Notes: generated by a model from the sequence alone, not told the origin. Numbered from the stretch's first letter, positions 1 to 43,164 are shown. The stretch is 64,000 nucleotides of DNA from Escherichia coli (GCF_044324785.1 NZ_CP172127.1), one strand, 5' to 3'. Made by a program: numbers and translations.

Positions 1-573
1 TATACAAAAGGTACGCAGTCACCCCATAAAGAGGCTCCCACTGCTTGTACGTACACGGTTTCAGGTTCTTTTTCACTCCCCTCGCCGGGGTTCTTTTCGC
101 CTTTCCCTCACGGTACTGGTTCACTATCGGTCAGTCAGGAGTATTTAGCCTTGGAGGATGGTCCCCCCATATTCAGACAGGATACCACGTGTCCCGCCCT
201 ACTCATCGAGCTCACAGCATGTGCATTTTTGTGTACGGGGCTGTCACCCTGTATCGCGCGCCTTTCCAGACGCTTCCACTAACACACACACTGATTCAGG
301 CTCTGGGCTGCTCCCCGTTCGCTCGCCGCTACTGGGGGAATCTCGGTTGATTTCTTTTCCTCGGGGTACTTAGATGTTTCAGTTCCCCCGGTTCGCCTCA
401 TTAACCTATGGATTCAGTTAATGATAGTGTGTCGAAACACACTGGGTTTCCCCATTCGGAAATCGCCGGTTATAACGGTTCATATCACCTTACCGACGCT
501 TATCGCAGATTAGCACGTCCTTCATCGCCTCTGACTGCCAGGGCATCCACCGTGTACGCTTAGTCGCTTAACC
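1..573 (-). rRNA. rrlH: 23S rRNA, 5' portion (continues beyond window start)
   Basis: Reverse complement of 556-573 matches the canonical 23S 5' end GGTTAAGCGACTAAGCGTACACGG; position after 16S-tRNAIle-tRNAAla spacer fits rrnH-type operon. Confidence 0.9.
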
Positions 574-747
574 TCACAACCCGAAGATGTTTCACTTCAG
601 AGTTGCGAAAATTTGAGAGACTCACGAACAACTTTCGTTGTTCAGTGTTTCAATTTTCAGCTTGATCCAGATTTTTAAAGAGCAAAACTTCGCAGTGAAC
701 CTTTGCAGGTACACTCTGAAGTATTTTTTATTTAATCACTACAGAGA

Positions 748-823
748 TGGTGGAGCTATGCGGGATCGAACCGCAGACCTCCTGCGTGCAAAGCAGGCGC
801 TCTCCCAGCTGAGCTATAGCCCC
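748..823 (-). tRNA. alaV: tRNA-Ala (UGC) in 16S-23S spacer
   Basis: Reverse complement reads GGGGCTATAGCTCAGCTGGGAGAGCGCCTGCTTTGCACGCAGGAGGTCTGCGGTTCGATCCCGCATAGCTCCACCA. Confidence 0.95.
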
Positions 824-865
824 ATAACATGTAGTTAAAACCTCTTCAAATTTGCGGTGCAAATT

Positions 866-942
<77 letters not shown>

Positions 943-1010
943 GTAGAGGTTTTACTGCTCATTTTCATCAGACAATCTGTGTGAGCACTACAAAGAACGC
1001 TTCTTTAAGG

Positions 1011-2552
<1,542 letters not shown>

Positions 2553-2677
2553 AAAAGTTTGATGCTCAAAGAATTAAACTTCGTAATGAATTACGTGTTC
2601 ACTCTTGAGACTTGGTATTCATTTTTCGTCTTGCGACGTTAAGAATCCGTATCTTCGAGTGCCCACACAGATTGTCT

Positions 2678-2697
2678 GATAAATTGTTAAAGAGCAG
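2678..2697 (-). promoter_or_regulatory. rrn leader boxA antitermination element
   Basis: Reverse complement contains TGCTCTTTAACAATTTATCA, the conserved rrn leader boxA. Confidence 0.6.
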
Positions 2698-2734
2698 TTG
2701 CGACGCGGCTTTCAGCTCACTGTCGCGAGGTGGC

Positions 2735-2766
2735 GTATATTACGCTTTCCTCTTTCAGAGTCAACC
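2735..2766 (-). promoter_or_regulatory. rrn P2 promoter (-35 TTGACT, -10 TAATAT)
   Basis: Reverse complement GGGTTGACTCTGAAAGAGGAAAGCGTAATATACGCC about 180 nt upstream of mature 16S 5' end. Confidence 0.55.
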
Positions 2767-2844
2767 CTAAATTTCAGGATTTTTCTCTTCAACCGAACCG
2801 GCTGTTTGTGTGAAGTGATTCACATCCGCCGCGTCGATGGAGGC

Positions 2845-2900
2845 GCATTATAGGGAGTCGGCTCAGGAAGACAAGCGGAAAAATGCATTTTTATTTCAAC
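2845..2900 (-). promoter_or_regulatory. rrn P1 promoter with AT-rich UP element (-35 TTGTCT, -10 TATAAT)
   Basis: Reverse complement AAAAATGCATTTTTCCGCTTGTCTTCCTGAGCCGACTCCCTATAATGCGCC, classic rrn P1 architecture about 290 nt upstream of 16S. Confidence 0.6.
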
Positions 2901-2917
2901 CGCTCATCTTTTAATCA

Positions 2918-3490
2918 TTACGCCGGTTTTTGCTGCTTTTTTATCGCTTGCGGCAGGTCTGCCAGGCTATTTAACACCCAATCCGCCGCGTTTTCTGCTT
3001 CAGGCGTAACAGGTTTACCCGTACGCACCAGCACTTTTGTTCCCACGTTCGCCGCAGCCGCTGCCTGCATATCTTCTAATTTATCGCCCACCATATAAGA
3101 AGCGGCCATATCAATATGCAAATAATCGCGTGCCGATAAAAGCATCCCCGGATGTGGTTTGCGGCAGTCGCAGACCTGGCGAAACTCTTCAACACTACCC
3201 TGCGGATGATGCGGGCAATAATAGATGCCATCCAGATCGACATCGCGGTCCGCCAGCGACCAGTCCATCCACTCGGTCAGCGTTTCAAACTGTGCTTCAG
3301 TAAATTTACCGCGAGCAATGCCAGACTGGTTGGTTACTACCACCAGCGCAAAGCCCATTTTTTTTAGCTCGCGCATGGCGTCAATAACACCGTCGATAAA
3401 TTCAAAGTTGTCGATCTCATGGACATAGCCGTGATCGACATTAATGGTGCCATCACGGTCAAGAAAAATTGCGGGTACGCTCTTCGCCAC
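2918..3490 (-). CDS. gmhB: D-glycero-beta-D-manno-heptose-1,7-bisphosphate 7-phosphatase
   Basis: 190-aa ORF, HAD-family DxDGT motif (FLDRDGTIN), recognised as GmhB; conserved position upstream of rrnH. Confidence 0.92.
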
Positions 3491-3571
3491 CTTTTATAGC
3501 TCCTTAATAAGGCATGTGACGCTAGTATCGCATGTTTCGACCAGCAAGAAAGTGCTCTTCGCATAAACCTG

Positions 3572-3595
3572 ATTGATTTAGACGTCTGGATGCCT
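3572..3595 (+). promoter_or_regulatory. Tandem MetJ boxes (met-box) in metN promoter region
   Basis: TGATTTAGACGTCTGGATGCCT contains a perfect AGACGTCT octamer flanked by degenerate 8-bp repeats, about 90 nt upstream of metN ATG. Confidence 0.5.
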
Positions 3596-3677
3596 TAACA
3601 TCCATTTCATTGACGGCGTTGCCCGTTCCAGGCATTCGAAATGCCACGACTAACTTAATGACGATAATAAATAATCA

Positions 3678-4709
3678 ATGATAAAACTTTCGAATATCAC
3701 CAAAGTGTTCCACCAGGGCACCCGCACCATCCAGGCGTTGAACAACGTCAGCCTGCATGTGCCAGCTGGACAAATTTATGGCGTTATCGGTGCCTCAGGC
3801 GCGGGTAAGAGTACGCTTATACGTTGTGTAAACCTGCTGGAGCGCCCAACCGAGGGTAGCGTGCTGGTCGATGGCCAGGAACTGACCACGCTGTCAGAAT
3901 CCGAGTTGACCAAAGCTCGCCGCCAGATTGGTATGATTTTCCAGCATTTTAACCTGCTCTCTTCACGTACTGTTTTTGGCAACGTGGCTCTGCCGCTGGA
4001 GCTGGACAACACACCGAAAGATGAGATCAAACGTCGCGTGACGGAATTGCTGTCATTGGTTGGTCTTGGCGATAAGCATGATAGCTACCCGTCGAATCTT
4101 TCCGGTGGGCAGAAACAGCGTGTGGCGATTGCCCGTGCGTTAGCCAGCAATCCCAAAGTATTGCTGTGTGATGAGGCCACCAGCGCGCTGGATCCGGCAA
4201 CGACACGTTCTATTCTCGAACTGCTGAAAGACATCAACCGCCGTCTGGGTTTGACGATTCTGTTGATCACCCACGAAATGGACGTTGTGAAGCGCATTTG
4301 TGATTGCGTGGCGGTCATCAGCAATGGCGAACTGATCGAGCAGGACACGGTAAGTGAAGTGTTCTCGCATCCGAAAACGCCGCTGGCGCAGAAGTTTATT
4401 CAGTCGACCCTGCATCTGGATATCCCGGAAGATTACCAGGAACGTCTGCAAGCGGAGCCATTCACTGACTGCGTGCCGATGCTGCGTCTGGAGTTTACCG
4501 GTCAATCGGTCGATGCCCCACTGCTTTCTGAAACCGCGCGTCGTTTCAACGTCAACAACAACATTATTAGCGCGCAGATGGATTACGCCGGTGGCGTTAA
4601 GTTCGGCATCATGCTGACTGAAATGCACGGCACACAACAAGATACGCAAGCCGCCATTGCCTGGCTGCAGGAACACCATGTAAAAGTAGAGGTACTGGGT
4701 TATGTCTGA
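3678..4709 (+). CDS. metN: Methionine ABC transporter ATP-binding protein
   Basis: 343-aa ORF with Walker [13 protein letters not shown] signature LSGGQKQR, C-terminal NIL domain. Confidence 0.95.
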
Positions 4710-5355
4710 GCCGATGATGTGGCTGCTGGTTCGTGGCGTATGGGAAACGCTGGCAATGACCTTCGTATCCGGATTTTTTGGGTTTGTGATTGGTCTGCCG
4801 GTTGGCGTCCTGCTTTATGTCACGCGTCCGGGGCAAATTATTGCTAACGCGAAGTTGTATCGTACCGTTTCTGCGATTGTGAACATTTTCCGTTCTATCC
4901 CGTTCATTATCTTGCTGGTATGGATGATTCCGTTTACCCGAGTTATTGTCGGTACATCGATTGGTTTGCAGGCAGCGATTGTTCCGTTAACCGTTGGTGC
5001 AGCACCGTTTATTGCCCGTATGGTCGAGAACGCTCTGCTGGAGATCCCAACCGGGTTAATTGAAGCTTCCCGCGCAATGGGTGCCACGCCAATGCAGATC
5101 GTCCGTAAAGTGCTGTTACCGGAAGCATTGCCGGGTCTGGTGAATGCGGCGACTATCACCCTGATTACCCTGGTCGGTTATTCCGCGATGGGTGGTGCAG
5201 TCGGTGCCGGTGGTTTAGGTCAGATTGGCTATCAGTATGGCTACATCGGCTACAACGCGACGGTGATGAATACGGTACTGGTATTGCTGGTCATTCTGGT
5301 TTATTTAATTCAGTTCGCAGGCGACCGCATCGTCCGGGCTGTCACTCGCAAGTAA
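4702..5355 (+). CDS. metI: Methionine ABC transporter permease
   Basis: 217-aa hydrophobic ORF overlapping metN stop by 8 nt; recognised MetI. Confidence 0.95.
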
Positions 5356-5394
5356 CGTTCAACACAACATAAATAATTGAAGAAGGAATAAGGT

Positions 5395-6210
5395 ATGGCG
5401 TTCAAATTCAAAACCTTTGCGGCAGTGGGAGCCCTGATTGGATCACTGGCATTGGTAGGCTGCGGTCAGGATGAAAAAGATCCAAACCACATTAAAGTCG
5501 GCGTGATTGTTGGTGCCGAACAGCAGGTTGCAGAAGTCGCGCAGAAAGTTGCGAAAGACAAATATGGTCTGGACGTTGAGCTGGTAACCTTCAACGACTA
5601 TGTTCTGCCAAACGAGGCATTGAGCAAAGGCGATATCGACGCCAACGCCTTCCAGCATAAACCGTACCTTGATCAGCAACTGAAAGATCGTGGCTACAAA
5701 CTGGTCGCAGTAGGCAACACTTTTGTTTATCCGATTGCTGGTTACTCCAAGAAAATCAAATCACTGGATGAATTGCAGGATGGTTCGCAGGTTGCCGTGC
5801 CAAACGACCCAACTAACCTTGGCCGTTCTCTGCTGCTGCTGCAAAAAGTGGGCTTGATCAAACTGAAAGATGGTGTTGGCCTGCTGCCGACAGTTCTTGA
5901 TGTTGTTGAGAACCCAAAAAATCTGAAAATTGTTGAGCTGGAAGCACCGCAGCTGCCGCGCTCTCTGGACGACGCGCAAATCGCTCTGGCAGTTATCAAT
6001 ACCACCTATGCCAGCCAGATTGGCCTGACTCCGGCGAAAGACGGTATCTTTGTCGAAGATAAAGACTCCCCGTACGTAAACCTGATCGTGACGCGTGAAG
6101 ATAACAAAGACGCCGAGAACGTGAAGAAATTCGTCCAGGCTTATCAGTCTGACGAAGTTTACGAAGCAGCAAACAAAGTGTTTAACGGCGGCGCTGTTAA
6201 AGGCTGGTAA
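5395..6210 (+). CDS. metQ: Methionine-binding lipoprotein
   Basis: 271-aa ORF with lipoprotein signal/lipobox LVGCGQ; recognised MetQ. Confidence 0.95.
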   Translation: MAFKFKTFAAVGALIGSLALVGCGQDEKDPNHIKVGVIVGAEQQVAEVAQKVAKDKYGLDVELVTFNDYVLPNEALSKGDIDANAFQHKPYLDQQLKDRGYKLVAVGNTFVYPIAGYSKKIKSLDELQDGSQVAVPNDPTNLGRSLLLLQKVGLIKLKDGVGLLPTVLDVVENPKNLKIVELEAPQLPRSLDDAQIALAVINTTYASQIGLTPAKDGIFVEDKDSPYVNLIVTREDNKDAENVKKFVQAYQSDEVYEAANKVFNGGAVKGW

Positions 6211-6247
6211 TTTTTAGGCTGTTTCCACAATTTGTAATATCATTCAG

Positions 6248-6276
6248 GACGGGCGCTTGCCCGTCTTGTCATTTTT
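6248..6276 (+). terminator. Rho-independent terminator after metQ
   Basis: GACGGGCGCTTGCCCGTC hairpin followed by TTGTCATTTTT. Confidence 0.55.
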
Positions 6277-6327
6277 ACAAGCTCCTGATTCAATATTGAC
6301 GTTTTGATCATACATTGAGGAAATACT

Positions 6328-6732
6328 ATGCGTGCTTTACCGATCTGTTTAGTAGCACTCATGCTAAGCGGCTGTTCCATGTTAAGCAGATCCCCTGTCG
6401 AACCCGTTCAAAGCACTGCACCCCAGCCGAAAGCGGAGCCTGCAAAACCGAAAGCGCCGCGCGCCACGCCGGTCCGAATTTATACCAATGCAGAAGAATT
6501 AGTCGGCAAACCGTTCCGCGATCTCGGTGAAGTCAGTGGCGATTCTTGCCAGGCCTCCAATCAGGACTCTCCGCCGAGCATTCCAACCGCACGTAAGCGG
6601 ATGCAAATCAACGCCTCGAAAATGAAGGCCAATGCGGTATTACTGCATAGCTGCGAAGTCACCAGCGGTACGCCAGGCTGCTATCGTCAGGCTGTATGTA
6701 TCGGTTCTGCGCTTAACATTACGGCGAAATGA
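6328..6732 (+). CDS. rcsF: Rcs phosphorelay outer-membrane lipoprotein sensor
   Basis: 134-aa ORF, lipobox LSGCS, Pro/Lys-rich linker, four-Cys C-terminal domain; recognised RcsF. Confidence 0.93.
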   Translation: MRALPICLVALMLSGCSMLSRSPVEPVQSTAPQPKAEPAKPKAPRATPVRIYTNAEELVGKPFRDLGEVSGDSCQASNQDSPPSIPTARKRMQINASKMKANAVLLHSCEVTSGTPGCYRQAVCIGSALNITAK

Positions 6733-7436
6733 GCAGTTTCCAGTTCGAGCAAATAGGCGTTATTCGCTCGCCCTATAAAGAAAAATTCGCCGTTCCGCGC
6801 CAGCCAGGTCTGGTAAAAAGCGCCAACGGCGAACTGCATCTCATTGCTCCCTACAACCAGGCCGATGCCGTTCGCGGCCTGGAAGCGTTCAGCCATTTAT
6901 GGATCCTTTTCGTCTTTCATCAAACGATGGAAGGCGGCTGGCGTCCGACTGTGCGTCCACCGCGCCTCGGCGGTAATGCCAGAATGGGTGTTTTCGCTAC
7001 GCGCTCCACTTTCCGCCCTAACCCGATTGGTATGTCGCTGGTAGAGCTGAAAGAGGTTGTTTGCCATAAAGACAGCGTGATTCTGAAGCTCGGCAGTCTG
7101 GATCTGGTAGATGGTACGCCGGTGGTGGATATCAAACCGTATCTCCCCTTTGCCGAATCGCTTCCAAATGCCAGTGCCAGCTATGCGCAAAGTGCGCCAG
7201 CGGCAGAGATGGCGGTGAGCTTTACCGCAGAGGTCGAAAAGCAGCTTTTGACGCTGGAGAAGCGTTATCCGCAGTTAACGCTGTTTATCCGCGAAGTACT
7301 GGCGCAGGACCCGCGCCCGGCCTATCGTAAAGGTGAGGAAACGGGCAAAACCTATGCCGTCTGGCTGCATGATTTTAACGTTCGCTGGCGCGTCACCGAC
7401 GCAGGTTTTGAAGTCTTTGCGCTGGAACCGCGTTAA
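6729..7436 (+). CDS. trmO: tRNA (adenine37-N6)-methyltransferase (formerly YaeB/TsaA)
   Basis: 235-aa ORF overlapping rcsF stop by 4 nt; recognised YaeB/TrmO. Confidence 0.9.
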   Translation: MSSFQFEQIGVIRSPYKEKFAVPRQPGLVKSANGELHLIAPYNQADAVRGLEAFSHLWILFVFHQTMEGGWRPTVRPPRLGGNARMGVFATRSTFRPNPIGMSLVELKEVVCHKDSVILKLGSLDLVDGTPVVDIKPYLPFAESLPNASASYAQSAPAAEMAVSFTAEVEKQLLTLEKRYPQLTLFIREVLAQDPRPAYRKGEETGKTYAVWLHDFNVRWRVTDAGFEVFALEPR

Positions 7437-7546
7437 ATTCGCTCCCTTCTCTTTTGACATTTCTTTTGCACTGGTAAACTAAATCACTTTTTTTGTCCCA
7501 GGCTCGCCTTGAGCCTGTTCTACCTTCCAACTGGAACCGTAACAAC

Positions 7547-9265
7547 ATGCGTACTAGCCAATACCTGCTCTCCACTCTCAAGGAGACACCTGCCGACGCC
7601 GAGGTGATCAGCCATCAGCTGATGCTGCGCGCCGGGATGATCCGCAAGCTGGCCTCCGGGTTATATACCTGGCTGCCGACCGGCGTGCGCGTTCTGAAAA
7701 AAGTCGAAAACATCGTGCGTGAAGAGATGAACAACGCCGGTGCGATCGAGGTGTCGATGCCGGTGGTTCAGCCAGCCGATTTGTGGCAAGAGAGTGGTCG
7801 TTGGGAACAGTACGGTCCGGAACTGCTGCGTTTTGTTGACCGTGGCGAGCGTCCGTTCGTACTCGGCCCAACTCATGAAGAAGTTATCACTGACCTGATT
7901 CGTAACGAGCTTAGCTCTTACAAACAGCTGCCGCTGAACTTCTATCAGATCCAGACCAAGTTCCGCGATGAAGTGCGTCCGCGTTTCGGCGTCATGCGTT
8001 CCCGCGAATTCCTGATGAAAGATGCTTACTCTTTCCATACTTCTCAGGAATCCCTGCAGGAAACCTACGATGCAATGTATGCGGCCTACAGCAAAATCTT
8101 CAGCCGCATGGGGCTGGATTTCCGCGCCGTACAGGCCGACACCGGTTCTATCGGCGGTAGCGCCTCTCACGAATTCCAGGTGCTGGCGCAGAGCGGTGAA
8201 GACGATGTGGTCTTCTCCGACACCTCTGACTATGCAGCGAACATTGAGCTGGCAGAAGCTATCGCGCCGAAAGAACCGCGCGCTGCTGCTACCCAGGAAA
8301 TGACGCTGGTTGATACGCCGAACGCGAAAACCATCGCGGAACTGGTTGAACAGTTCAATCTGCCGATTGAGAAAACGGTTAAGACTCTGCTGGTTAAAGC
8401 GGTTGAAGGCAGTAGCTTCCCGCTGGTTGCGCTGCTGGTGCGCGGTGACCACGAGCTGAACGAAGTTAAAGCAGAAAAACTGCCGCAGGTTGCCAGCCCG
8501 CTGACTTTCGCGACCGAAGAAGAAATTCGTGCCGTGGTTAAAGCCGGTCCGGGTTCACTGGGTCCGGTAAACATGCCAATTCCGGTGGTGATTGACCGTA
8601 CCGTTGCGGCGATGAGTGATTTCGCTGCTGGTGCTAACATCGATGGTAAACACTACTTCGGTATCAACTGGGATCGCGATGTCGCTACCCCGGAAATTGC
8701 TGATATCCGTAACGTAGTGGCTGGCGATCCAAGCCCGGATGGTCAGGGTACGCTGCTGATCAAACGTGGTATCGAAGTTGGTCACATCTTCCAGCTGGGT
8801 ACCAAGTACTCCGAAGCACTGAAAGCCTCCGTACAGGGTGAAGATGGCCGTAACCAAATCCTGACGATGGGTTGCTACGGTATCGGGGTAACGCGTGTAG
8901 TAGCTGCGGCGATTGAGCAGAACTACGACGAACGCGGCATCGTATGGCCTGACGCTATCGCGCCGTTCCAGGTGGCGATTCTGCCGATGAACATGCACAA
9001 ATCCTTCCGCGTACAGGAGCTGGCCGAGAAACTGTACAGCGAACTGCGCGCGCAGGGTATCGAAGTGCTGCTGGATGACCGCAAAGAGCGTCCAGGCGTG
9101 ATGTTTGCTGATATGGAACTGATCGGTATTCCGCACACTATTGTGCTGGGCGACCGTAACCTCGACAACGACGATATCGAATATAAATATCGTCGTAACG
9201 GCGAGAAACAGTTAATTAAGACTGGTGACATCGTCGATTATCTGGTGAAACAGATTAAAGGCTGA
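7547..9265 (+). CDS. proS: Prolyl-tRNA synthetase
   Basis: Recognised ProS; start placed at MRTSQYLL (572 aa) rather than the upstream in-frame ATG of the 590-aa ORF. Confidence 0.93.
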
Positions 9266-9271
9266 TGCCAG

Positions 9272-9301
9272 AAAGGGTCCTGAATTTCAGGGCCCTTTTT
9301 T
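9272..9301 (+). terminator. Rho-independent terminator after proS
   Basis: GGGTCCTGAATTTCAGGGCCC hairpin followed by TTTTTTT. Confidence 0.7.
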
Positions 9302-9317
9302 ACATGGATTGTATAAA

Positions 9318-10142
9318 ATGGATAAACCAAAGGCGCATTGCTGCCTGCTTCTCCCCTGCTTTCTTTTCCTTTCGGCCTGTACCGTAGATATCAGCCAGCC
9401 AGACTCATCAGCCACAGCGGTAGATGCCGGGGCAAAAACATGGGCTGTCAAATTCCAGCATCAAAGCTCTTTCACCGAACAATCAATAAAAGAAATAACG
9501 GTACCTGATCTCAAACACGGCGATTTGCTGTTCTCCTCAAGCCTTGGGGTAACCTCATTTGGAATCCGCGTCTTCAGCACTTCCTCTGTGAGTCACGTTG
9601 CAATCTATCTGGGTGATAATAACGTTGCAGAAGCGACAGGCGCTGGCGTCCAGATTGTTTCCCTCAAAAAAGCGATGAAGCATAGCGATAAGCTTTTCGT
9701 CTTACGAGTCCCGGATCTTACCCCGCAACAAGCCACAGAAATCACCGCGTTCACCAACAAAATTAAAGATAGCGGTTACAACTATCGCGGCATTGTCGAA
9801 TTTATTCCCTTTATGGTGACTCGCCAGATGTGCTCACTGAATCCGTTCTCCGAGGATTTTCGTCAACAGTGCGTCAGCGGCCTGGCGAAAGCGCAGTTAA
9901 GCAGTGTGGGCGAAGGAGACAAAAAGTCGTGGTTTTGTTCGGAATTTGTCACTGATGCATTTGCTAAAGCCGGGCATCCGCTTACACTGGCGCAATCGGG
10001 CTGGATTAGCCCTGCCGATCTGATGCATATGCGTATTGGTGATGTCTCTGCGTTTAAGCCAGAAACGCAGTTACAGTATGTTGGGCACCTGAAGCCAGGG
10101 ATTTATATCAAGGCGGGTCGCTTTGTTGGGCTGACTCAGTGA
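9318..10142 (+). CDS. yaeF: Predicted NlpC/P60-type lipoprotein YaeF
   Basis: 274-aa ORF with lipoprotein signal (FLFLSAC lipobox); recognised as YaeF from sequence and position; start chosen at second ATG. Confidence 0.8.
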   Translation: MDKPKAHCCLLLPCFLFLSACTVDISQPDSSATAVDAGAKTWAVKFQHQSSFTEQSIKEITVPDLKHGDLLFSSSLGVTSFGIRVFSTSSVSHVAIYLGDNNVAEATGAGVQIVSLKKAMKHSDKLFVLRVPDLTPQQATEITAFTNKIKDSGYNYRGIVEFIPFMVTRQMCSLNPFSEDFRQQCVSGLAKAQLSSVGEGDKKSWFCSEFVTDAFAKAGHPLTLAQSGWISPADLMHMRIGDVSAFKPETQLQYVGHLKPGIYIKAGRFVGLTQ

Positions 10143-10144
10143 TG

Positions 10145-10168
10145 AAAGCCGGAGAATGCTCCGGCTTT
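10145..10168. terminator. Hairpin shared by convergent yaeF and nlpE (bidirectional terminator)
   Basis: AAAGCCGGAG-AATG-CTCCGGCTTT perfect 10-bp stem in the 29-bp gap between the two stop codons. Confidence 0.5.
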
Positions 10169-10171
10169 CAA

Positions 10172-10882
10172 TTACTGCCCCAAACTACTGCAATCCTGGT
10201 TCGGATAAAATTTACCCGCCGTATCGGGCGCTAATACTTTGGTTGGCGCACCGGTATCCGGATTAGCCTCAAGCGTAAAGTGCCCTTCTAATGACAGTAA
10301 CATCGGTTTTTCACTATGACCGCGCGCAGCCAGGTAGCCACGCTCCAGCTCTGCGTTATTCGCTACCATGAAACGTTTTCCGGTCGCGCAATCAGTGAAG
10401 GTCGCCGCATCAGCCATATAAAAATACATGCCCCGCAGGGTCATCGGCGTCATGGGTAAACTGGATTGTGCCGGTTCCAGCGTATAGTTGAACTGCGATT
10501 CAATCGGATTACCTTCACGATCGAGCATCTCCAGCGCATCTCCTTTCGCCCGATAATATGACTTTTCACCTTTGCTGTCGGTTAATACCAGCTTGTCAGC
10601 GGTTCGCGCCCATGTACCGTAGGAAGCGAAAGAGGAAGGCTCTTCACGCGCACCAAGATAGCGTTCATTCATCACCCAGGTTCCATCTTTTTCGAGGAAC
10701 AAAGAGGTTTCGATCCCTTCGCAATCGGCACACGGCAGCACGCCGCGCCAACTTTGCGGCATCGGTTTCAGTTCGGCAGCCTGCGCCGGAGAAAGCGTGT
10801 CGACTTCGGCCCGATTATTACATCCCATCAGAGTAAAGAGGCTGATTACAGCCATCGCTGTCACTATCGCTTTTTTCACCAT
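10172..10882 (-). CDS. nlpE: Cpx-pathway outer-membrane lipoprotein NlpE (CutF)
   Basis: 236-aa ORF, lipobox LMGCN, CxxC motif; recognised NlpE. Confidence 0.93.
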   Translation of the reverse strand: MVKKAIVTAMAVISLFTLMGCNNRAEVDTLSPAQAAELKPMPQSWRGVLPCADCEGIETSLFLEKDGTWVMNERYLGAREEPSSFASYGTWARTADKLVLTDSKGEKSYYRAKGDALEMLDREGNPIESQFNYTLEPAQSSLPMTPMTLRGMYFYMADAATFTDCATGKRFMVANNAELERGYLAARGHSEKPMLLSLEGHFTLEANPDTGAPTKVLAPDTAGKFYPNQDCSSLGQ

Positions 10883-10895
10883 CCATTCCTTCTTT

Positions 10896-11318
10896 TTATT
10901 CCCGACCGCTGCGCACTTTGCCGCGCATCGCCTTCACGCTTGATTTTTGTGCTTTCGATGCCAGCCTGCGCTCTTTTGATGCGCGGGTGGGCCGCGTGGG
11001 TCGTCGGGCTTTTTGTTCTGTTGTTAAATCTTTAATCACTGCCACCAGCCGGGCCAGCGCCGCTTCGCGGTTGAGCTCCTGATTGCGGTATTCCTGTGCC
11101 TTAATGACAATCACCCCATCACTGCTGATCAAGTGATGGCTGGCGGCGAGCAGACGTTCTTTGTAATACTCTGGCAGGCTGGACGCCCGAATGTCAAAAC
11201 GCAGATGAATAGCCGTTGAGGTCTTATTAACATGCTGCCCGCCCGCGCCCTGCGCACGAATGGCGGTGATCTCAAGCTCACCATCGGGGATAGCAACATG
11301 TCGGGAAATCACAATCAT
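10896..11318 (-). CDS. arfB: Alternative ribosome-rescue factor B / peptidyl-tRNA hydrolase
   Basis: 140-aa ORF with GGQ motif ([12 protein letters not shown]) and basic C-terminal tail; recognised ArfB (YaeJ). Confidence 0.93.
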
Positions 11319-11860
11319 GAAGGTTGTTGCCAGGCGGTTAAGTTCACTTCCAGATTATTCTTATCATCCGATAACCAGATCACGCCATCCTGAATCGTTG
11401 CCTGCAGTGTCATGGTACGATCGGCAAAGGCGCTTACTTTCGCCAGTTGTTCATCGTCCAGATACCAGATGGAAAGATTGGAAAACTGCGCGCATTTGCT
11501 CTGATTTTGCTGCCACCAGATTTGCGCCGCCCGACTATTATAGGCAAACAGCGCCACTTCTGCGGCCTGGGTGCAGGCTTTCTTAATCCGCCGCTCATCC
11601 GGCAGCCCCAGCTCAATCCACAAATCAATGCCCAGGTGATCGTTACGCAGCCACGCTTCCGGCTCATCATCGGCACATAAACCACGGGTAAATTGCAGAC
11701 GTTCATCAGCATATTTCAGCCACGCCAGCAGGCGCAGCATCATACGCTCCTGGGTTTCTGAAGGATGGCGCGCCAGCGTCAGAGAGGCATCGAGAAACTG
11801 GTTACGGTCGAGATCGGCCACATTAACCGTTGCTTTATAAATTGTCGCTTTAAGCGCCAT
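11315..11860 (-). CDS. yaeQ: YaeQ family protein
   Basis: 181-aa ORF overlapping arfB start by 4 nt; recognised YaeQ. Confidence 0.9.
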
Positions 11861-12025
11861 AAGAAAACTCCTTTCGAATCAGGAGGCCATTGTAACGGAA
11901 TACGTGCAGTTGCGGCGCTGATATTGCAGAAATGAGTGTGGTATAGTCACCTTGCGAAACAGAGTTTATCTTCGTAGGCTTAGACTTGCATCCACGGTTA
12001 AGTCAGAGTGCTGACAGGAGGGCAT

Positions 12026-12226
12026 GTGGAAAAATATTGTGAGTTAATACGCAAGCGGTACGCGGAAATCGCCAGCGGAGACTTAGGATACGTTCCGGAC
12101 GCGCTGGGCTGCGTTTTGAAAGTGCTGAATGAAATGGCTGCCGACGACGCCCTTTCTGAGGCTGTCAGGGAAAAAGCAGCATACGCTGCGGCAAACTTAC
12201 TGGTGAGCGATTATGTCAATGAATGA
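12026..12226 (+). CDS. yaeP: UPF0253 small protein YaeP
   Basis: 66-aa protein recognised as YaeP; probable GTG start inside the 72-aa ORF. Confidence 0.8.
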
Positions 12227-12473
12227 TACGTATCAACCAATCAATTGTGATGATTACGATAATCTTGAGCTCGCCTGCCAGCATCATTTAATGCTGACAC
12301 TTGAGCTGAAAGATGGCGAAAAATTGCAGGCGAAGGCCAGCGATTTAGTCTCCCGCAAAAATGTGGAGTATCTGGTCGTCGAGGCCGCTGGTACAACCCG
12401 CGAGCTGCGTCTGGATAAAATTACCAGCTTTAGCCACCCGGAAATCGGTACGGTGGTGGTGAGCGAGTCCTGA
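12213..12473 (+). CDS. rof: Rho-binding antiterminator Rof
   Basis: 86-aa ORF overlapping yaeP end; recognised Rof (YaeO); exact start (first or third Met) uncertain. Confidence 0.88.
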
Positions 12474-12482
12474 TTGACTTTT

Positions 12483-12515
12483 GCCGGATGCGACGTTTGA
12501 TGCGTATCCGGCCTT
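12483..12515. repeat. REP-like imperfect palindrome between convergent rof and tilS
   Basis: GCCGGATGCGACG...GCGTATCCGGCC resembles REP consensus (GCCGGATG ... CATCCGGC). Confidence 0.45.
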
Positions 12516-12521
12516 CACTGA

Positions 12522-13817
12522 CTAACCATTTCTCTGCCAGACAAAACTTACTCCATTCTCACTTTCAGCCATACCTTCTTGCGTCATAAATACTCCTGCC
12601 GCCGCAATCAGCGTTTCGCCATAAAACAGCAGTGGCGTGGTGTCACGTAGCCACGGCGGAACGCCCAGCTCCTGCCAGATTTTCTTCAGCTTACGTCCGC
12701 CGTTGCGCCCGATAATATGCAGCAATCCTGGCGCTTTGAAACGCACGCTGACCGCTTCGTCTGCACGCGGAGGGCGAATATCGCCTCCCGCAGTAAGCTG
12801 TACACTTCCCAGTCCCGCCGGTAATTCCAGCGGTTGTAGCCACGTCTGCCACGGCACAATGGTTTCGCTTTGCCCAGTGACGGATTTAATCCACCACAGT
12901 TGCGACTGATAGCGGCGGATTTCAAACGCGCCCAGGCGTAAACAGGGGGAAGCATCTTCCCGCGCCAGCGCCACTTCCTGCCAGATCCTCACCAACGCGT
13001 CGCGGGAAGGCATCGGTGCATTCTTCCCTGCCAGCCAGCGGCGTATAATCGCCGCGCGGCGGGCATCACTCATCGCCAGCATTGGCGCAATCTGCAGCGT
13101 CCCCTGCGACGTTTGACAGTGCGCTATATCATCCGCCAGCAGTTCATCTAACAGGCTCTCTTGTTCAGCGCAAAGCGCAGCGCTGCGGGCCGTTGCTTCG
13201 GCAAAATGCGGCCAACGCTGCTGCAATAACGGCACCACGCGCAGGCGCAGAAAGTTACGATCGTATGAGTCGTCCTGATTACTTTCGTCTTCAATCCAGC
13301 GTAAACCATGCGCCAATGCCCACTGCGCCAGTTCCCCCCGCGTGCGGGCAAGCAACGGACGGATAAGCCGTGTTCCGGCAAACTCCGAAACTTCCGCCAT
13401 AGCCGAAAGCCCGGCAGGGCCGCTACCGCGTTTTAGCGCCAGCAGAAAAGTTTCACATTGATCGTCGAGATGTTGCGCGGTGACCAGCACTTCACCGGGC
13501 AACAAGGTGCGGGCAAATGCCTGATAACGCGCCTGCCGCGCCTGGGCCTCAATCCCCAGCCCCTCTTGCGCAAGTTGTACGCGTTCGACCACCAGCGGCA
13601 CCTGCCACTGTTGGCAGATGTTCTCGCAATGCCTAACCCAGGCATCGGCATTGGCACTTAAACCGTGATGCACATGGATAGCGCGTAGAGTGACGCCCGG
13701 ATTTTCCGTCCGCCACTGCACCAACTGATGCAGCAAAACGGTGGAGTCAAGCCCGCCGCTAAAGGCCACCAGAATCTGGCGTGAGGTGAGAAGTTGTCTA
13801 TTGAGCGTGAGTGTCAT
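12522..13817 (-). CDS. tilS: tRNA(Ile)-lysidine synthetase
   Basis: 431-aa ORF with PP-loop SGGLDS motif; recognised TilS (MesJ). Confidence 0.93.
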
Positions 13818-36640: not shown

Positions 36641-37435
36641 ATGGCTATCTCAATCAAGACCCCAGAAGATATCGAAAAAATGCGCGTCGCTGGCCGACTG
36701 GCTGCCGAAGTGCTGGAGATGATCGAACCGTATGTTAAACCGGGCGTCAGCACCGGCGAGCTGGATCGCATCTGTAATGATTACATTGTTAATGAACAAC
36801 ACGCGGTTTCTGCCTGCCTCGGCTATCACGGTTATCCGAAATCCGTCTGCATCTCTATTAATGAAGTGGTGTGCCACGGTATCCCGGACGACGCCAAGCT
36901 GCTGAAAGATGGCGATATCGTTAACATTGATGTCACCGTAATCAAAGATGGTTTCCACGGCGATACCTCGAAAATGTTTATCGTCGGTAAGCCGACCATC
37001 ATGGGCGAACGTCTGTGCCGCATCACGCAAGAAAGCCTGTACCTGGCGCTGCGCATGGTCAAACCTGGCATTAATCTGCGCGAAATCGGTGCGGCGATTC
37101 AGAAATTTGTTGAAGCAGAAGGTTTCTCCGTCGTTCGTGAATATTGTGGACACGGTATTGGTCGTGGCTTCCATGAAGAACCGCAGGTACTGCACTATGA
37201 CTCCCCTGAAACCAACGTCGTGCTGAAACCGGGGATGACCTTCACCATCGAGCCAATGGTCAACGCGGGTAAAAAAGAGATCCGCACCATGAAAGATGGC
37301 TGGACGGTAAAAACCAAAGATCGCAGCTTGTCTGCACAATATGAGCATACTATTGTGGTGACTGATAACGGCTGCGAAATTCTGACGCTACGCAAGGATG
37401 ACACCATCCCGGCGATAATCTCGCACGACGAATAA
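36641..37435 (+). CDS. map: Methionine aminopeptidase
   Basis: 264-aa ORF recognised as Map. Confidence 0.97.
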   Translation: MAISIKTPEDIEKMRVAGRLAAEVLEMIEPYVKPGVSTGELDRICNDYIVNEQHAVSACLGYHGYPKSVCISINEVVCHGIPDDAKLLKDGDIVNIDVTVIKDGFHGDTSKMFIVGKPTIMGERLCRITQESLYLALRMVKPGINLREIGAAIQKFVEAEGFSVVREYCGHGIGRGFHEEPQVLHYDSPETNVVLKPGMTFTIEPMVNAGKKEIRTMKDGWTVKTKDRSLSAQYEHTIVVTDNGCEILTLRKDDTIPAIISHDE

Positions 37436-37437
37436 GA

Positions 37438-37466
37438 TGAAGCCGGCGAATGCCGGCTTTTTTAAT
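37438..37466 (+). terminator. Rho-independent terminator after map
   Basis: AGCCGGCGAATGCCGGCT hairpin followed by TTTTTTAAT. Confidence 0.75.
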
Positions 37467-37478
37467 GCGATAATTTAA

Positions 37479-40169
<2,691 letters not shown>

Positions 40170-40199
40170 TGTGTTTACTGATATGAAAAGAGTTTAACA

Positions 40200-41024
40200 A
40201 TGCAGCAGTTACAGAACATTATTGAAACCGCTTTTGAACGCCGTGCCGAGATCACGCCAGCCAATGCAGACACCGTTACCCGCGAAGCGGTAAATCAGGT
40301 GATCGCCCTGCTGGATTCCGGCGCACTGCGTGTGGCGGAAAAAATTGACGGTCAGTGGGTGACGCATCAGTGGTTGAAAAAGGCGGTGCTGCTCTCTTTC
40401 CGTATTAATGATAATCAGGTGATCGAAGGGGCAGAAAGCCGCTACTTCGATAAAGTGCCGATGAAATTCGCCAACTACGATGAAGCGCGTTTCCAGAAAG
40501 AAGGCTTCCGCGTTGTACCACCAGCGGCGGTACGTCAGGGTGCGTTCATTGCCCGTAACACCGTGCTGATGCCGTCTTACGTCAACATCGGCGCATATGT
40601 TGATGAAGGCACCATGGTTGATACCTGGGCGACCGTCGGTTCCTGTGCGCAGATTGGTAAAAACGTCCATCTTTCCGGTGGCGTAGGTATCGGCGGCGTG
40701 CTGGAGCCATTACAGGCGAACCCGACCATTATTGAAGATAACTGCTTCATTGGCGCGCGTTCTGAAGTGGTTGAAGGCGTAATTGTCGAAGAAGGTTCCG
40801 TCATTTCCATGGGCGTATACATCGGTCAGAGCACCCGTATTTACGACCGTGAAACCGGCGAAATCCACTACGGTCGCGTTCCGGCGGGGTCTGTGGTTGT
40901 TTCAGGTAATCTGCCGTCGAAAGATGGCAAATACAGTCTTTACTGTGCGGTTATCGTTAAGAAAGTTGACGCGAAAACTCGCGGCAAAGTCGGCATTAAC
41001 GAACTGCTGCGTACCATCGACTAA
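40200..41024 (+). CDS. dapD: Tetrahydrodipicolinate N-succinyltransferase
   Basis: 274-aa ORF recognised as DapD. Confidence 0.96.
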
Positions 41025-41076
41025 AAATCAGTACACGGGCAGCATGACGCTGCCCGATTTTTTGCAGGGATGGATG

Positions 41077-41889
41077 ATGATCACACGCAGGCGTTTTTTA
41101 CAGGCAGCCGCCGCGACGTTAGCTGCCGGATCAAGCCTCAGCTATATGCATTATTGGGAACCTGGCTGGCTTGAAATAACCCATCACAGCATCAGCTTTT
41201 TTAAAGACAAAGCCCTACCTTTTAAAATTCTTTTTCTGGCAGATCTCCATTACTCCCGCTTTGTTCCGCTTACCTTGTTTTCAGACGCCATTAATCATGG
41301 AGTGGCACAAAAGCCCGATTTGATTCTGCTAGGCGGCGATTACGTATTGTTTGATATGCCGCTGAATTTTTCAGCCTTCAGTGACGTACTCTCTCCCCTT
41401 GCCAAATGTGCGCCGACATTTGCCTGTTACGGCAACCACGATCGCCCCGTGAGAACGGAGAAAAATCACTTAATTGGCGAGGCGTTAAAGACGGCGGGGA
41501 TCACGGTGTTATTTAACGAAGCCACGCTTATCTCCACTCAGAAGCAGCAATTTGAACTGGTTGGCGCAGGTGATTTATGGGCCGGGCAATGTAATCCACC
41601 CGGCGTAAATGACGCGAGTCTGCCACGGCTGATGCTGGCGCATAATCCCGACAGTAAAGAACGCCTGCGCGAAGAAAAATGGGATCTAATGCTTTGCGGT
41701 CATACTCACGGCGGGCAGCTCCACGTGCCGTTAATAGGCGAACCTTTTGCGCCTGTTGCCGATAAACGCTACGTCGCCGGGTTAAATGCCTTTGGCGAGC
41801 GGCAAATTTACACCACCCGCGGCGTGGGAAATTTGCATGGCTTGCGTCTGAACTGCCGCCCGGAAGTGACGATGCTGGAACTGATTTAA
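41077..41889 (+). CDS. yaeI: Tat-signal metallophosphoesterase YaeI
   Basis: 270-aa protein with twin-arginine signal (TRRRFLQAAAATLAAG) and calcineurin-like GDY/GNHD motifs; start trimmed from the 368-aa ORF that runs back into dapD. Confidence 0.88.
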   Translation: MITRRRFLQAAAATLAAGSSLSYMHYWEPGWLEITHHSISFFKDKALPFKILFLADLHYSRFVPLTLFSDAINHGVAQKPDLILLGGDYVLFDMPLNFSAFSDVLSPLAKCAPTFACYGNHDRPVRTEKNHLIGEALKTAGITVLFNEATLISTQKQQFELVGAGDLWAGQCNPPGVNDASLPRLMLAHNPDSKERLREEKWDLMLCGHTHGGQLHVPLIGEPFAPVADKRYVAGLNAFGERQIYTTRGVGNLHGLRLNCRPEVTMLELI

Positions 41890-41903
41890 CTGGAGATTCA
41901 ATA

Positions 41904-42614
41904 ATGGATTATTTTCTCGGCGGCTATATGTTGCTACATTGCCTGCCCGTTGAGGGGCTTCATCCGCAACTTAAAGGTAAACCACTGCTAACGTGCAGTA
42001 CCTGTTTTAATGAAAGTCTGCTTTGTGCCTGGTCTTACGCGTGGTTAGGTTCCGATAAAGACTCTCCTTATGATGGCAATATGTCACTTTACGAACATCT
42101 GGAAGCCACTTTTTTGCTTACAGACGAAGACAGGGAACAGATCCGCATCCGGGCAAATGATTGGTTCAATGAGGATAAAGTTGGCTGGGAAAGTATATTC
42201 ATGGATAAATCGACCGCTATTGAATATAAACAAAGTTTCTTTCCCCATATCGAGAATTGCTACCTTCTTGCAATCTATATCAGAGAACCGAATGTACAAG
42301 AGTTCTCCCTTTATCCATCCCATGATGGTATTGCTGCAAGGCTTCTTCGCAGGCAGCCTGAACGAAATGAAATGGATGAAAAGTTATTAGGTTACGATAT
42401 TCTGGGTCTGGAAATCGGCGGGCAGTTCCATACATCTCACTGCCATCCATTGTATAACGAACTCCACCAGCGCTTCGGTCTCACCCTCAATCAACACGGA
42501 CTTTATAACGAAATCCCGGACTGGCAACCGGTCGTGGACTATATGAACGACGACGCCACGGGATGCGAACCCGTCCCCTGGGGTATCGCCACAATAAAGC
42601 AGGTAATTTTTTGA
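41904..42614 (+). CDS. Hypothetical protein, unrecognised family (accessory ORF between yaeI and yaeH)
   Basis: 711-nt ORF filling an otherwise intergenic gap; GGAG Shine-Dalgarno 8 nt upstream of ATG; starts 14 nt after yaeI stop, same strand; AT-richer than neighbours; no signal peptide or TM segment evident; 7 Cys incl. CSTC and HTSHCH motifs. Confidence 0.72.
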   Translation: MDYFLGGYMLLHCLPVEGLHPQLKGKPLLTCSTCFNESLLCAWSYAWLGSDKDSPYDGNMSLYEHLEATFLLTDEDREQIRIRANDWFNEDKVGWESIFMDKSTAIEYKQSFFPHIENCYLLAIYIREPNVQEFSLYPSHDGIAARLLRRQPERNEMDEKLLGYDILGLEIGGQFHTSHCHPLYNELHQRFGLTLNQHGLYNEIPDWQPVVDYMNDDATGCEPVPWGIATIKQVIF

Positions 42615-42733
42615 TTTTTACGCCATGATAGAAGTCTGGAAGAAAAAGGCTTTCTGCGATCACAGTCGAGCCGAGCGGGCCAGGCCAAATGCTAAAATAA
42701 GCACAATTTACTGACTCATTTTGAGGTAACGCT

Positions 42734-43120
42734 ATGTACGACAATCTGAAAAGTCTGGGTATTACCAATCCTGAAGAAATTGATCGTTACAGCCTCCGGC
42801 AGGAAGCCAACAACGATATTCTGAAAATCTATTTCCAGAAAGACAAAGGCGAGTTTTTTGCCAAGAGCGTGAAATTTAAATATCCGCGTCAGCGTAAAAC
42901 GGTCGTCGCCGATGGTGTGGGTCAGGGTTATAAAGAAGTGCAGGAGATTAGCCCTAATCTTCGCTATATCATTGATGAGTTAGATCAAATCTGCCAGCGT
43001 GACCGCAGCGAAGTTGATCTTAAGCGTAAGATCCTCGACGACTTACGTCACCTGGAGTCAGTAGTAACCAATAAGATCAGCGAGATTGAAGCCGATCTGG
43101 AAAAACTGACGCGTAAATAA
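42734..43120 (+). CDS. yaeH: UPF0325 protein YaeH
   Basis: 128-aa ORF recognised as YaeH; GAGG SD upstream. Confidence 0.92.
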
Positions 43121-43132
43121 TGCCATTCTGTG

Positions 43133-43164
43133 GGCCGGGTAAAGTCTCACCCGGCTGTAATTTT
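43133..43164 (+). terminator. Rho-independent terminator after yaeH
   Basis: GCCGGGTAAAGTCTCACCCGGC hairpin followed by TGTAATTTT. Confidence 0.6.

Follow-up and report, generated by a model that had tools for sequence, protein, structure and literature searches.

A reading frame of an undescribed protein family behind yaeI in Escherichia coli, most likely co-transcribed with the phosphoesterase gene and unlikely to encode its functional partner

The window analysed here is the whole stretch of 64,000 nucleotides of Escherichia coli DNA (GCF_044324785.1, NZ_CP172127.1), and within it the genes follow in the order map-glnD-dapD-yaeI-ORF-yaeH-cdaR-degP, where the ORF is an unannotated open reading frame on the same strand as its neighbors (Table 1). 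Among complete genomes E. coli strain N3 is the closest; its identity to the flanks of the locus is 98.6–99.5%, which places the window in E. coli proper. The intrinsic terminator behind dapD is common to E. coli, E. albertii, Pseudocitrobacter and Enterobacter in the alignment, and the terminator scan reported, in addition to this site and the one behind yaeH, a weak terminator-like site within the ORF itself (41984–41999).

Table 1. Features of the dapD–yaeH interval, in coordinates of the window
Feature	Position	Strand	Evidence or remark
dapD intrinsic terminator	41036..41056	+	8-bp stem, 7 GC pairs, then T run; terminator scan
yaeI, calcineurin-like metallophosphoesterase, 270 aa	41077..41889	+	NF008460, Metallophos, TIGR01409
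yaeI stop codon, TAA	41887-41889	+	sequence
yaeI–ORF spacer, 14 nt, ctggagattcaata	41890..41903	+	sequence
Shine-Dalgarno GGAG, 8 nt 5' of the ORF ATG	41892-41895	+	sequence
ORF, 236 codons/aa, uncharacterised family, ATG at 41904	41904..42614	+	homologues, alignments, dN/dS, AF2 model
ORF 3' end, kept as a non-coding scar in ORF-less E. coli	42564..42614	+	genome matches, alignment
ORF–yaeH spacer, 119 nt	42615..42733	+	96% identity to E. coli yaeH upstream region
yaeH (DUF3461), 128 aa	42734..43120	+	Pfam PF11944, 2.4e-55
yaeH terminator	43133-43156	+	terminator scan

The upstream gene is a full-length YaeI equivalog. The NCBIfam model for phosphodiesterase YaeI (NF008460) aligns with residues 1–270 at 477.3 bits against a cut-off of 188, and Pfam Metallophos matches at 1.7e-12, which upholds the metallophosphoesterase identity proposed in an earlier note on this DNA. 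The twin-arginine (Tat) signal proposed in the same note is borne out in part: the N terminus carries a twin-arginine-type TRRRFLQ sequence (the pattern sought was S/T-R-R-x-F-L-K) and TIGR01409 scores 18.5 against a cut-off of 16.7, but Pfam TAT_signal (PF10518) reaches 16, below its cut-off of 22.7. A search of a literature collection for YaeI together with the twin-arginine pathway found no paper, and on function the papers found on YaeI give only its annotation in lipid A biosynthesis. The gene is dispensable in E. coli; it is present in 2,084 of 5,426 complete genomes, where its nucleotide identity to the allele in the window is 81–88%. The allele here is diverged while the flanks are 98–99.5% identical to those of other E. 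coli, and yaeI dN/dS (0.12–0.32) is far above that of glnD, dapD and yaeH (0–0.04). E. coli that lack yaeI, including O157:H7 and ST131, carry ~170 nt of unrelated AT-rich DNA between the dapD terminator and the ORF scar described below (L015, 1326–1637).

The ORF is a real protein-coding accessory gene and belongs to a family that is uncharacterised and of sporadic distribution. When 5.8 billion proteins were searched with a word index, 21 clusters matched, most of them full length (230–245 aa) and 33–62% identical to the query; an E. coli entry matched at 99% identity, and one match is a fragment of 151 aa. An exhaustive profile search returned 727 representative clusters at E <= 0.001, those listed being mostly stand-alone proteins of ~230–245 aa. 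At 50% identity the family amounts to ~700 clusters from Bacteroidota, Acinetobacter, Acidobacteria, a few Enterobacteriaceae and others. Homologues share the N-terminal sequence MxYYLGGY, which supports the ATG at 41904, and 22 positions are invariant among the closest 22 sequences. At 0.09 between the window and E. albertii and 0.14 between Pseudocitrobacter and Enterobacter, dN/dS points to purifying selection on the ORF. One could instead regard it as non-functional, a chance frame or decaying pseudogene between yaeI and yaeH, since it occurs in no complete E. coli genome, has no family annotation and has been deleted repeatedly; set against full-length homologues in many phyla, the invariant positions, the low dN/dS, a confident structural model and the conserved start codon and Shine-Dalgarno sequence, that reading has next to no probability. 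A spurious ORF was rejected on conservation and dN/dS.

No name attaches to the family, as every source name retrieved for it, including those of ten distant clusters, is 'hypothetical protein'. The ORF and up to 53 diverse members gave no match to Pfam, NCBIfam, PADLOC or PHROGs; for the four members compared with the defence profiles of PADLOC-DB 2.0 no family appeared at E <= 1, no PDB sequence matched the family profile at E <= 10, and tblastn against plasmids and phages found no copy of the ORF. Its GC content is 45%, compared with 52% for the whole window.

The predicted product is free of hydrophobic segments (Kyte-Doolittle means over 19 residues peak at 0.88), its pI is 4.8 and its N terminus is modelled as a conserved beta-strand, in agreement with the earlier note's description of a cytoplasmic-looking protein, and we consider a soluble, acidic, cytoplasmic protein a reasonable prediction. 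An AF2 model built from a 22-sequence alignment is a single alpha/beta domain (pLDDT 90, pTM 0.89), and Foldseek searches of this model found no structure in the PDB or BFVD at E <= 0.001. In an alignment of 145 full-length members, conservation of polar residues is highest at C34 (93%), H176 (89%), C180 (96%), N196, E222 and W226. The first three positions read Cys-His-Cys in 129 of the 145 and Cys-Cys-Cys in 4, and all three are replaced together in 6. Exchange of His for Cys and joint loss are typical of metal-ligand sets, and both being seen here argues for a single set of metal ligands rather than a Cys-His catalytic dyad. We therefore take C34, H176 and C180 to be the probable ligands of a single metal ion, most likely zinc, and the product most likely acts alone in the cytoplasm as a putative metal-binding protein. 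The arrangement H176-x3-C180 plus the distant C34 recalls the H-x3-C-x2-C motif of the ZAS anti-sigma factors. Unlike in those proteins, residue 183 is Leu, so that there is no second Cys at +3, no sigma-factor gene is adjacent, and the model places H176 in a short strand (175–177) and C180 between that strand and a helix (184–191), with no helical bundle. The ORF matched no Pfam zinc domain.

The earlier note had reported that the ORF begins 14 nt past the yaeI stop codon on the same strand with no hairpin in between, and had judged co-transcription likely. Both observations are confirmed: the yaeI TAA and the ATG at 41904 are separated by exactly this distance, the terminator scan found no site from 41600 to 41910, and the RNA fold across the junction is no stabler than that of shuffled sequence (z = -0.71). 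The ORF–yaeH spacer likewise contains no terminator in the scan and shows no extra fold stability (z = +0.51). The yaeI–ORF spacer is identical in E. albertii and has an 11-nt counterpart in Pseudocitrobacter, and the start codon and Shine-Dalgarno sequence of the ORF are conserved in the alignment. A consensus scan of the second half of yaeI, which is weak evidence, detected no + strand promoter. Given the shared strand, the 14-nt spacing, the GGAG and the lack of a hairpin, co-transcription of yaeI and the ORF is plausible and, judged from this anatomy, most likely.

Only ~14 nt separate the end of the dapD terminator's T run from the yaeI start codon, too little for a conventional, separate yaeI promoter. 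Expression of yaeI may depend on read-through of this terminator or on a promoter inside dapD, and the ORF would then be the distal gene of a yaeI–ORF message, with no recognisable promoter of its own, the two genes probably being expressed jointly and at a low level. Alternatively, the ORF might be driven by a promoter within the 3' part of yaeI. In Enterobacter sp. kpr-6 the ORF sits after the dapD terminator, and so must be expressed in some other way. Further downstream, the ORF–yaeH spacer is the likely site of yaeH's own promoter, and in K-12 the yaeI–yaeH spacer has an RpoD holoenzyme site (PMC3946193, Table 2). The sequence TGcTAAAAT at ~42690–42698, ~36 nt upstream of the yaeH start, resembles an extended -10 element by eye and is a candidate for that site; the consensus promoter scan did not report it. 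Visual inspection of the 3' end of the ORF for a sigma-70 promoter, whose presence could account for retention of the scar described below, gave no convincing -35/-10 pair.

Four presence/absence states all occur at the single dapD–yaeH slot. Both genes are missing from ~3,300 complete E. coli genomes, N3 among them (e.g., L015), and yaeI stands alone in the 2,084 complete genomes already mentioned (e.g., L014). Both genes are found in the window, in 24 read contigs of rare E. coli, in 12 E. albertii contigs, in Escherichia sp. MOD1-EC7003 and in Pseudocitrobacter cyperus (two-gene loci L001–L008 and L016), and the ORF stands alone between dapD and yaeH in Enterobacter sp. kpr-6 (L011/L051). 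The ORF occurs in none of the 5,426 complete E. coli genomes; it is rare in this species, and in E. albertii its presence varies. The distribution of either gene is independent of the other, as of two dispensable genes in one variable slot.

The E. coli genomes that lack the ORF retain a trace of it. The last 31–50 nt of the ORF (…tatcgccacaataaagcaggtaattttttga) precede the yaeH upstream region in these genomes, and 5,424 E. coli genomes match window positions 42564–42733 and nothing further upstream. The junction of this scar lies at 42584 where yaeI is present and at ~42564 where it is missing. A scar of the ORF 3' end with two different junctions means that the ORF is ancestral at this site and was later removed in E. 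coli by at least two different deletions. The retained segment (42564–42614) may overlap a yaeH control element. In Enterobacter and Pseudocitrobacter, the codons for the C-terminal WGIAKIKQVIF also show unusually high nucleotide conservation.

Divergence along the locus is uneven. Between the window and E. albertii, pS is 0.745 (saturated) for the ORF, compared with 0.33–0.42 for glnD, dapD, yaeI and yaeH (yaeI, 0.417), and the amino-acid identity of the ORF product is 58%, compared with 97–100% for those of glnD, dapD and yaeH. When the window was compared over 36800–43100 with the ORF-carrying E. coli L001–L003, the stretch from ~41600 through the ORF and yaeH showed 0–2 mismatches per 300 nt, and the region from map through the 5' half of yaeI mostly 9–17 mismatches per 300 nt with a few near-identical blocks. 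This pattern suggests a recombination breakpoint inside yaeI and a recent spread of the ORF segment. Together with the diverged yaeI allele and the low GC content of the ORF, the mosaic divergence argues for old alleles that were moved by recombination.

To place the family outside this slot, one genome per species was scanned in 100,044 species, which gave 47 loci. Most of these are in Bacteroidota; others come from four Acinetobacter species, and one each from Acidobacteria, Ignavibacteria, a spirochaete and a clostridial MAG. Their neighborhoods were compared together with those of the metagenomic loci L009, L010 and L013. A phmmer search for YaeI within 6 kb of the homologue found no match at the 49 loci outside Escherichia and matched at the Escherichia locus only, the query being one YaeI sequence, which very distant metallophosphoesterases could escape. 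All-against-all clustering of 1,236 flanking ORFs revealed no neighbor shared beyond within-genus synteny. Pfam scans of 115 neighbor proteins gave a mixed picture, with AraC regulators, GNAT acetyltransferases, beta-lactamase family proteins, SDR and DUF4180 proteins, and further TIR, ArsC and methyltransferase proteins, and with many neighbors unassigned; Metallophos does not recur among these families.

In the four Acinetobacter species (L035, L037, L038 and L041, at ~4618–7223) the homologue lies 4–5 nt after cysG, which encodes siroheme synthase, and 51–55 nt before a SpoU-family methylase gene, and the Brucepastera homologue follows a beta-lactamase-family gene at a distance of 22 nt. 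Close placement behind genes as different as these indicates that tight spacing is a habit of the family and not a sign of partnership. Two sets of distant homologues have settings of their own. That of L009 (JGI 3300043788, 1–12714) has a relaxase, a NikA-like protein, an HTH_17 excisionase-type protein and a tyrosine integrase within 6 kb, and from these neighbors looks to be located on a mobilisable element. Those of L010, L013 and L058 have in common a downstream GntP-family permease gene and an opposite-strand McrBC-family gene, the only case of cross-locus synteny outside single genera.

The earlier note had also raised a functional link between the two proteins, with the ORF product as partner, inhibitor, immunity-like protein or chaperone of YaeI, and the co-occurrence comparison that it proposed bears directly on this. 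A dedicated partner would be either a Tat proofreading chaperone, bound to the twin-arginine signal until export, or a protein of inhibitor or immunity-like type that prevents phosphoesterase activity in the cytoplasm. The tight same-strand spacing and the Shine-Dalgarno sequence are conserved in E. coli, E. albertii, MOD1-EC7003 and Pseudocitrobacter, a Tat-type signal on YaeI and a cytoplasmic ORF product have the topology that a pre-export chaperone would need, and a lineage-specific functional tie would also produce a conserved short spacer where both genes are present. Yet all 2,084 complete E. coli genomes with yaeI lack the ORF, Enterobacter sp. kpr-6 has the ORF but no yaeI, and the 49 loci in other phyla have no YaeI-like neighbor within 6 kb. 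Occurrence of the ORF at unrelated loci without yaeI, which the earlier note had named as a finding that would speak against the link, is thus what these loci show. The ORF and yaeI do not share a history either, as their pS values relative to E. albertii differ so widely. The ORF has no match to the TorD/DmsD (PF02613), NapD (PF03927) or immunity families of Pfam, and its model is mixed alpha/beta with no PDB match. A dedicated YaeI partner is therefore very improbable, and functional partnership with YaeI in general unlikely. Because each gene is often found without the other, and the family elsewhere stands behind unrelated genes, we suggest that the coupling is positional and not functional; of the earlier interpretation of the pair, co-transcription is backed by the anatomy of the junction (the 14-nt spacer, the Shine-Dalgarno sequence and the lack of a terminator), and the functional link is not.

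Comparison with known systems leads to the same point. The Tat maturation proteins TorD/DmsD and NapD resemble the ORF product in that a small cytoplasmic protein is encoded beside a gene with a twin-arginine signal. The ORF product has no similarity to them in sequence or fold and belongs to neither family, being alpha/beta in the model where TorD is all-helical, and unlike these proteins it does not co-occur with its supposed substrate, YaeI. YaeI is not known to have a cofactor of the kind handled by Tat maturation chaperones. Nor does the ORF match the polymorphic-toxin immunity families of Pfam (Imm, SUKH type), and no recurrent adjacent gene accompanies it as these would lead one to expect. 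The calcineurin-like phosphoesterases of the YaeI and LpxG-like kind are represented here by the upstream gene alone; the ORF is unrelated to them.

A stand-alone protective determinant, gained and lost singly in variable regions, is another reading of the ORF, whether as orphan immunity, an anti-phage function, or a protein that modifies or binds xenobiotics or antibiotics. Its distribution is patchy across phyla, rare in E. coli and variable in E. albertii, its GC content is low relative to the window, and its alleles are strongly divergent where glnD, dapD and yaeH are nearly identical; its neighbors include GNAT, AraC, beta-lactamase family, TIR, McrBC, PIN-like and ankyrin proteins, and one copy lies on an element with a relaxase and an integrase. 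Such a distribution and such neighborhoods would suit a protective or detoxifying function. However, the family has no PADLOC, PHROG or immunity-family Pfam match, no copy was found on plasmids or phages, neither a cognate toxin nor another partner gene recurs beside it, dN/dS well below 1 indicates no whole-gene diversifying selection, and the neighborhoods are too heterogeneous for one activity. We regard a protective function as possible but doubtful. With similar reserve, we put forward as a tentative outline an undescribed family with a fold unlike solved structures and a Cys-His-Cys metal site, serving as a single-gene protective or detoxifying determinant of variable slots, which in Escherichia would be an ancient polymorphic gene mostly deleted, with the scar kept because it overlaps the yaeH control region.

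Among the closest parallels to the ORF are the DUF-type families found in variable slots, such as the DUF3461 of yaeH. The ORF product is likewise a single domain of ~235 aa, conserved across phyla and with no assigned function, whose gene lies between housekeeping genes and is present or absent among close strains. It differs from DUF3461 in that its family has no Pfam or NCBIfam model at all and in that no PDB or BFVD structure resembles its model. The family is undescribed, with no name, Pfam model or structural relative, and is otherwise an ordinary 'conserved hypothetical'.

Taken as a whole, it is probable that the ORF is a real accessory gene in a variable slot, that its co-transcription with yaeI is positional, and that its product is a metal-binding cytoplasmic protein with a function of its own. 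The anatomy of the locus, the reality of the gene, the independent distribution of the two genes and the deletion scar are observed here, and co-transcription, the metal site and the stand-alone function are inferred.

Tight spacing behind a gene for a Tat-signal phosphoesterase is in this case no evidence of partnership, and experiments that treat the ORF product as a chaperone or inhibitor of YaeI would probably be wasted. The absence of yaeI from ~62% of complete E. coli genomes limits the essential or core roles that can be proposed for it, for example in lipid A metabolism. The family of the ORF folds confidently in prediction, and structure determination and phenotype screens would be reasonable next uses of it. 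The dapD–yaeH interval, for its part, is a compact four-state presence/absence polymorphism with a scar and signs of recombination, and is usable as a marker in E. coli population genomics.
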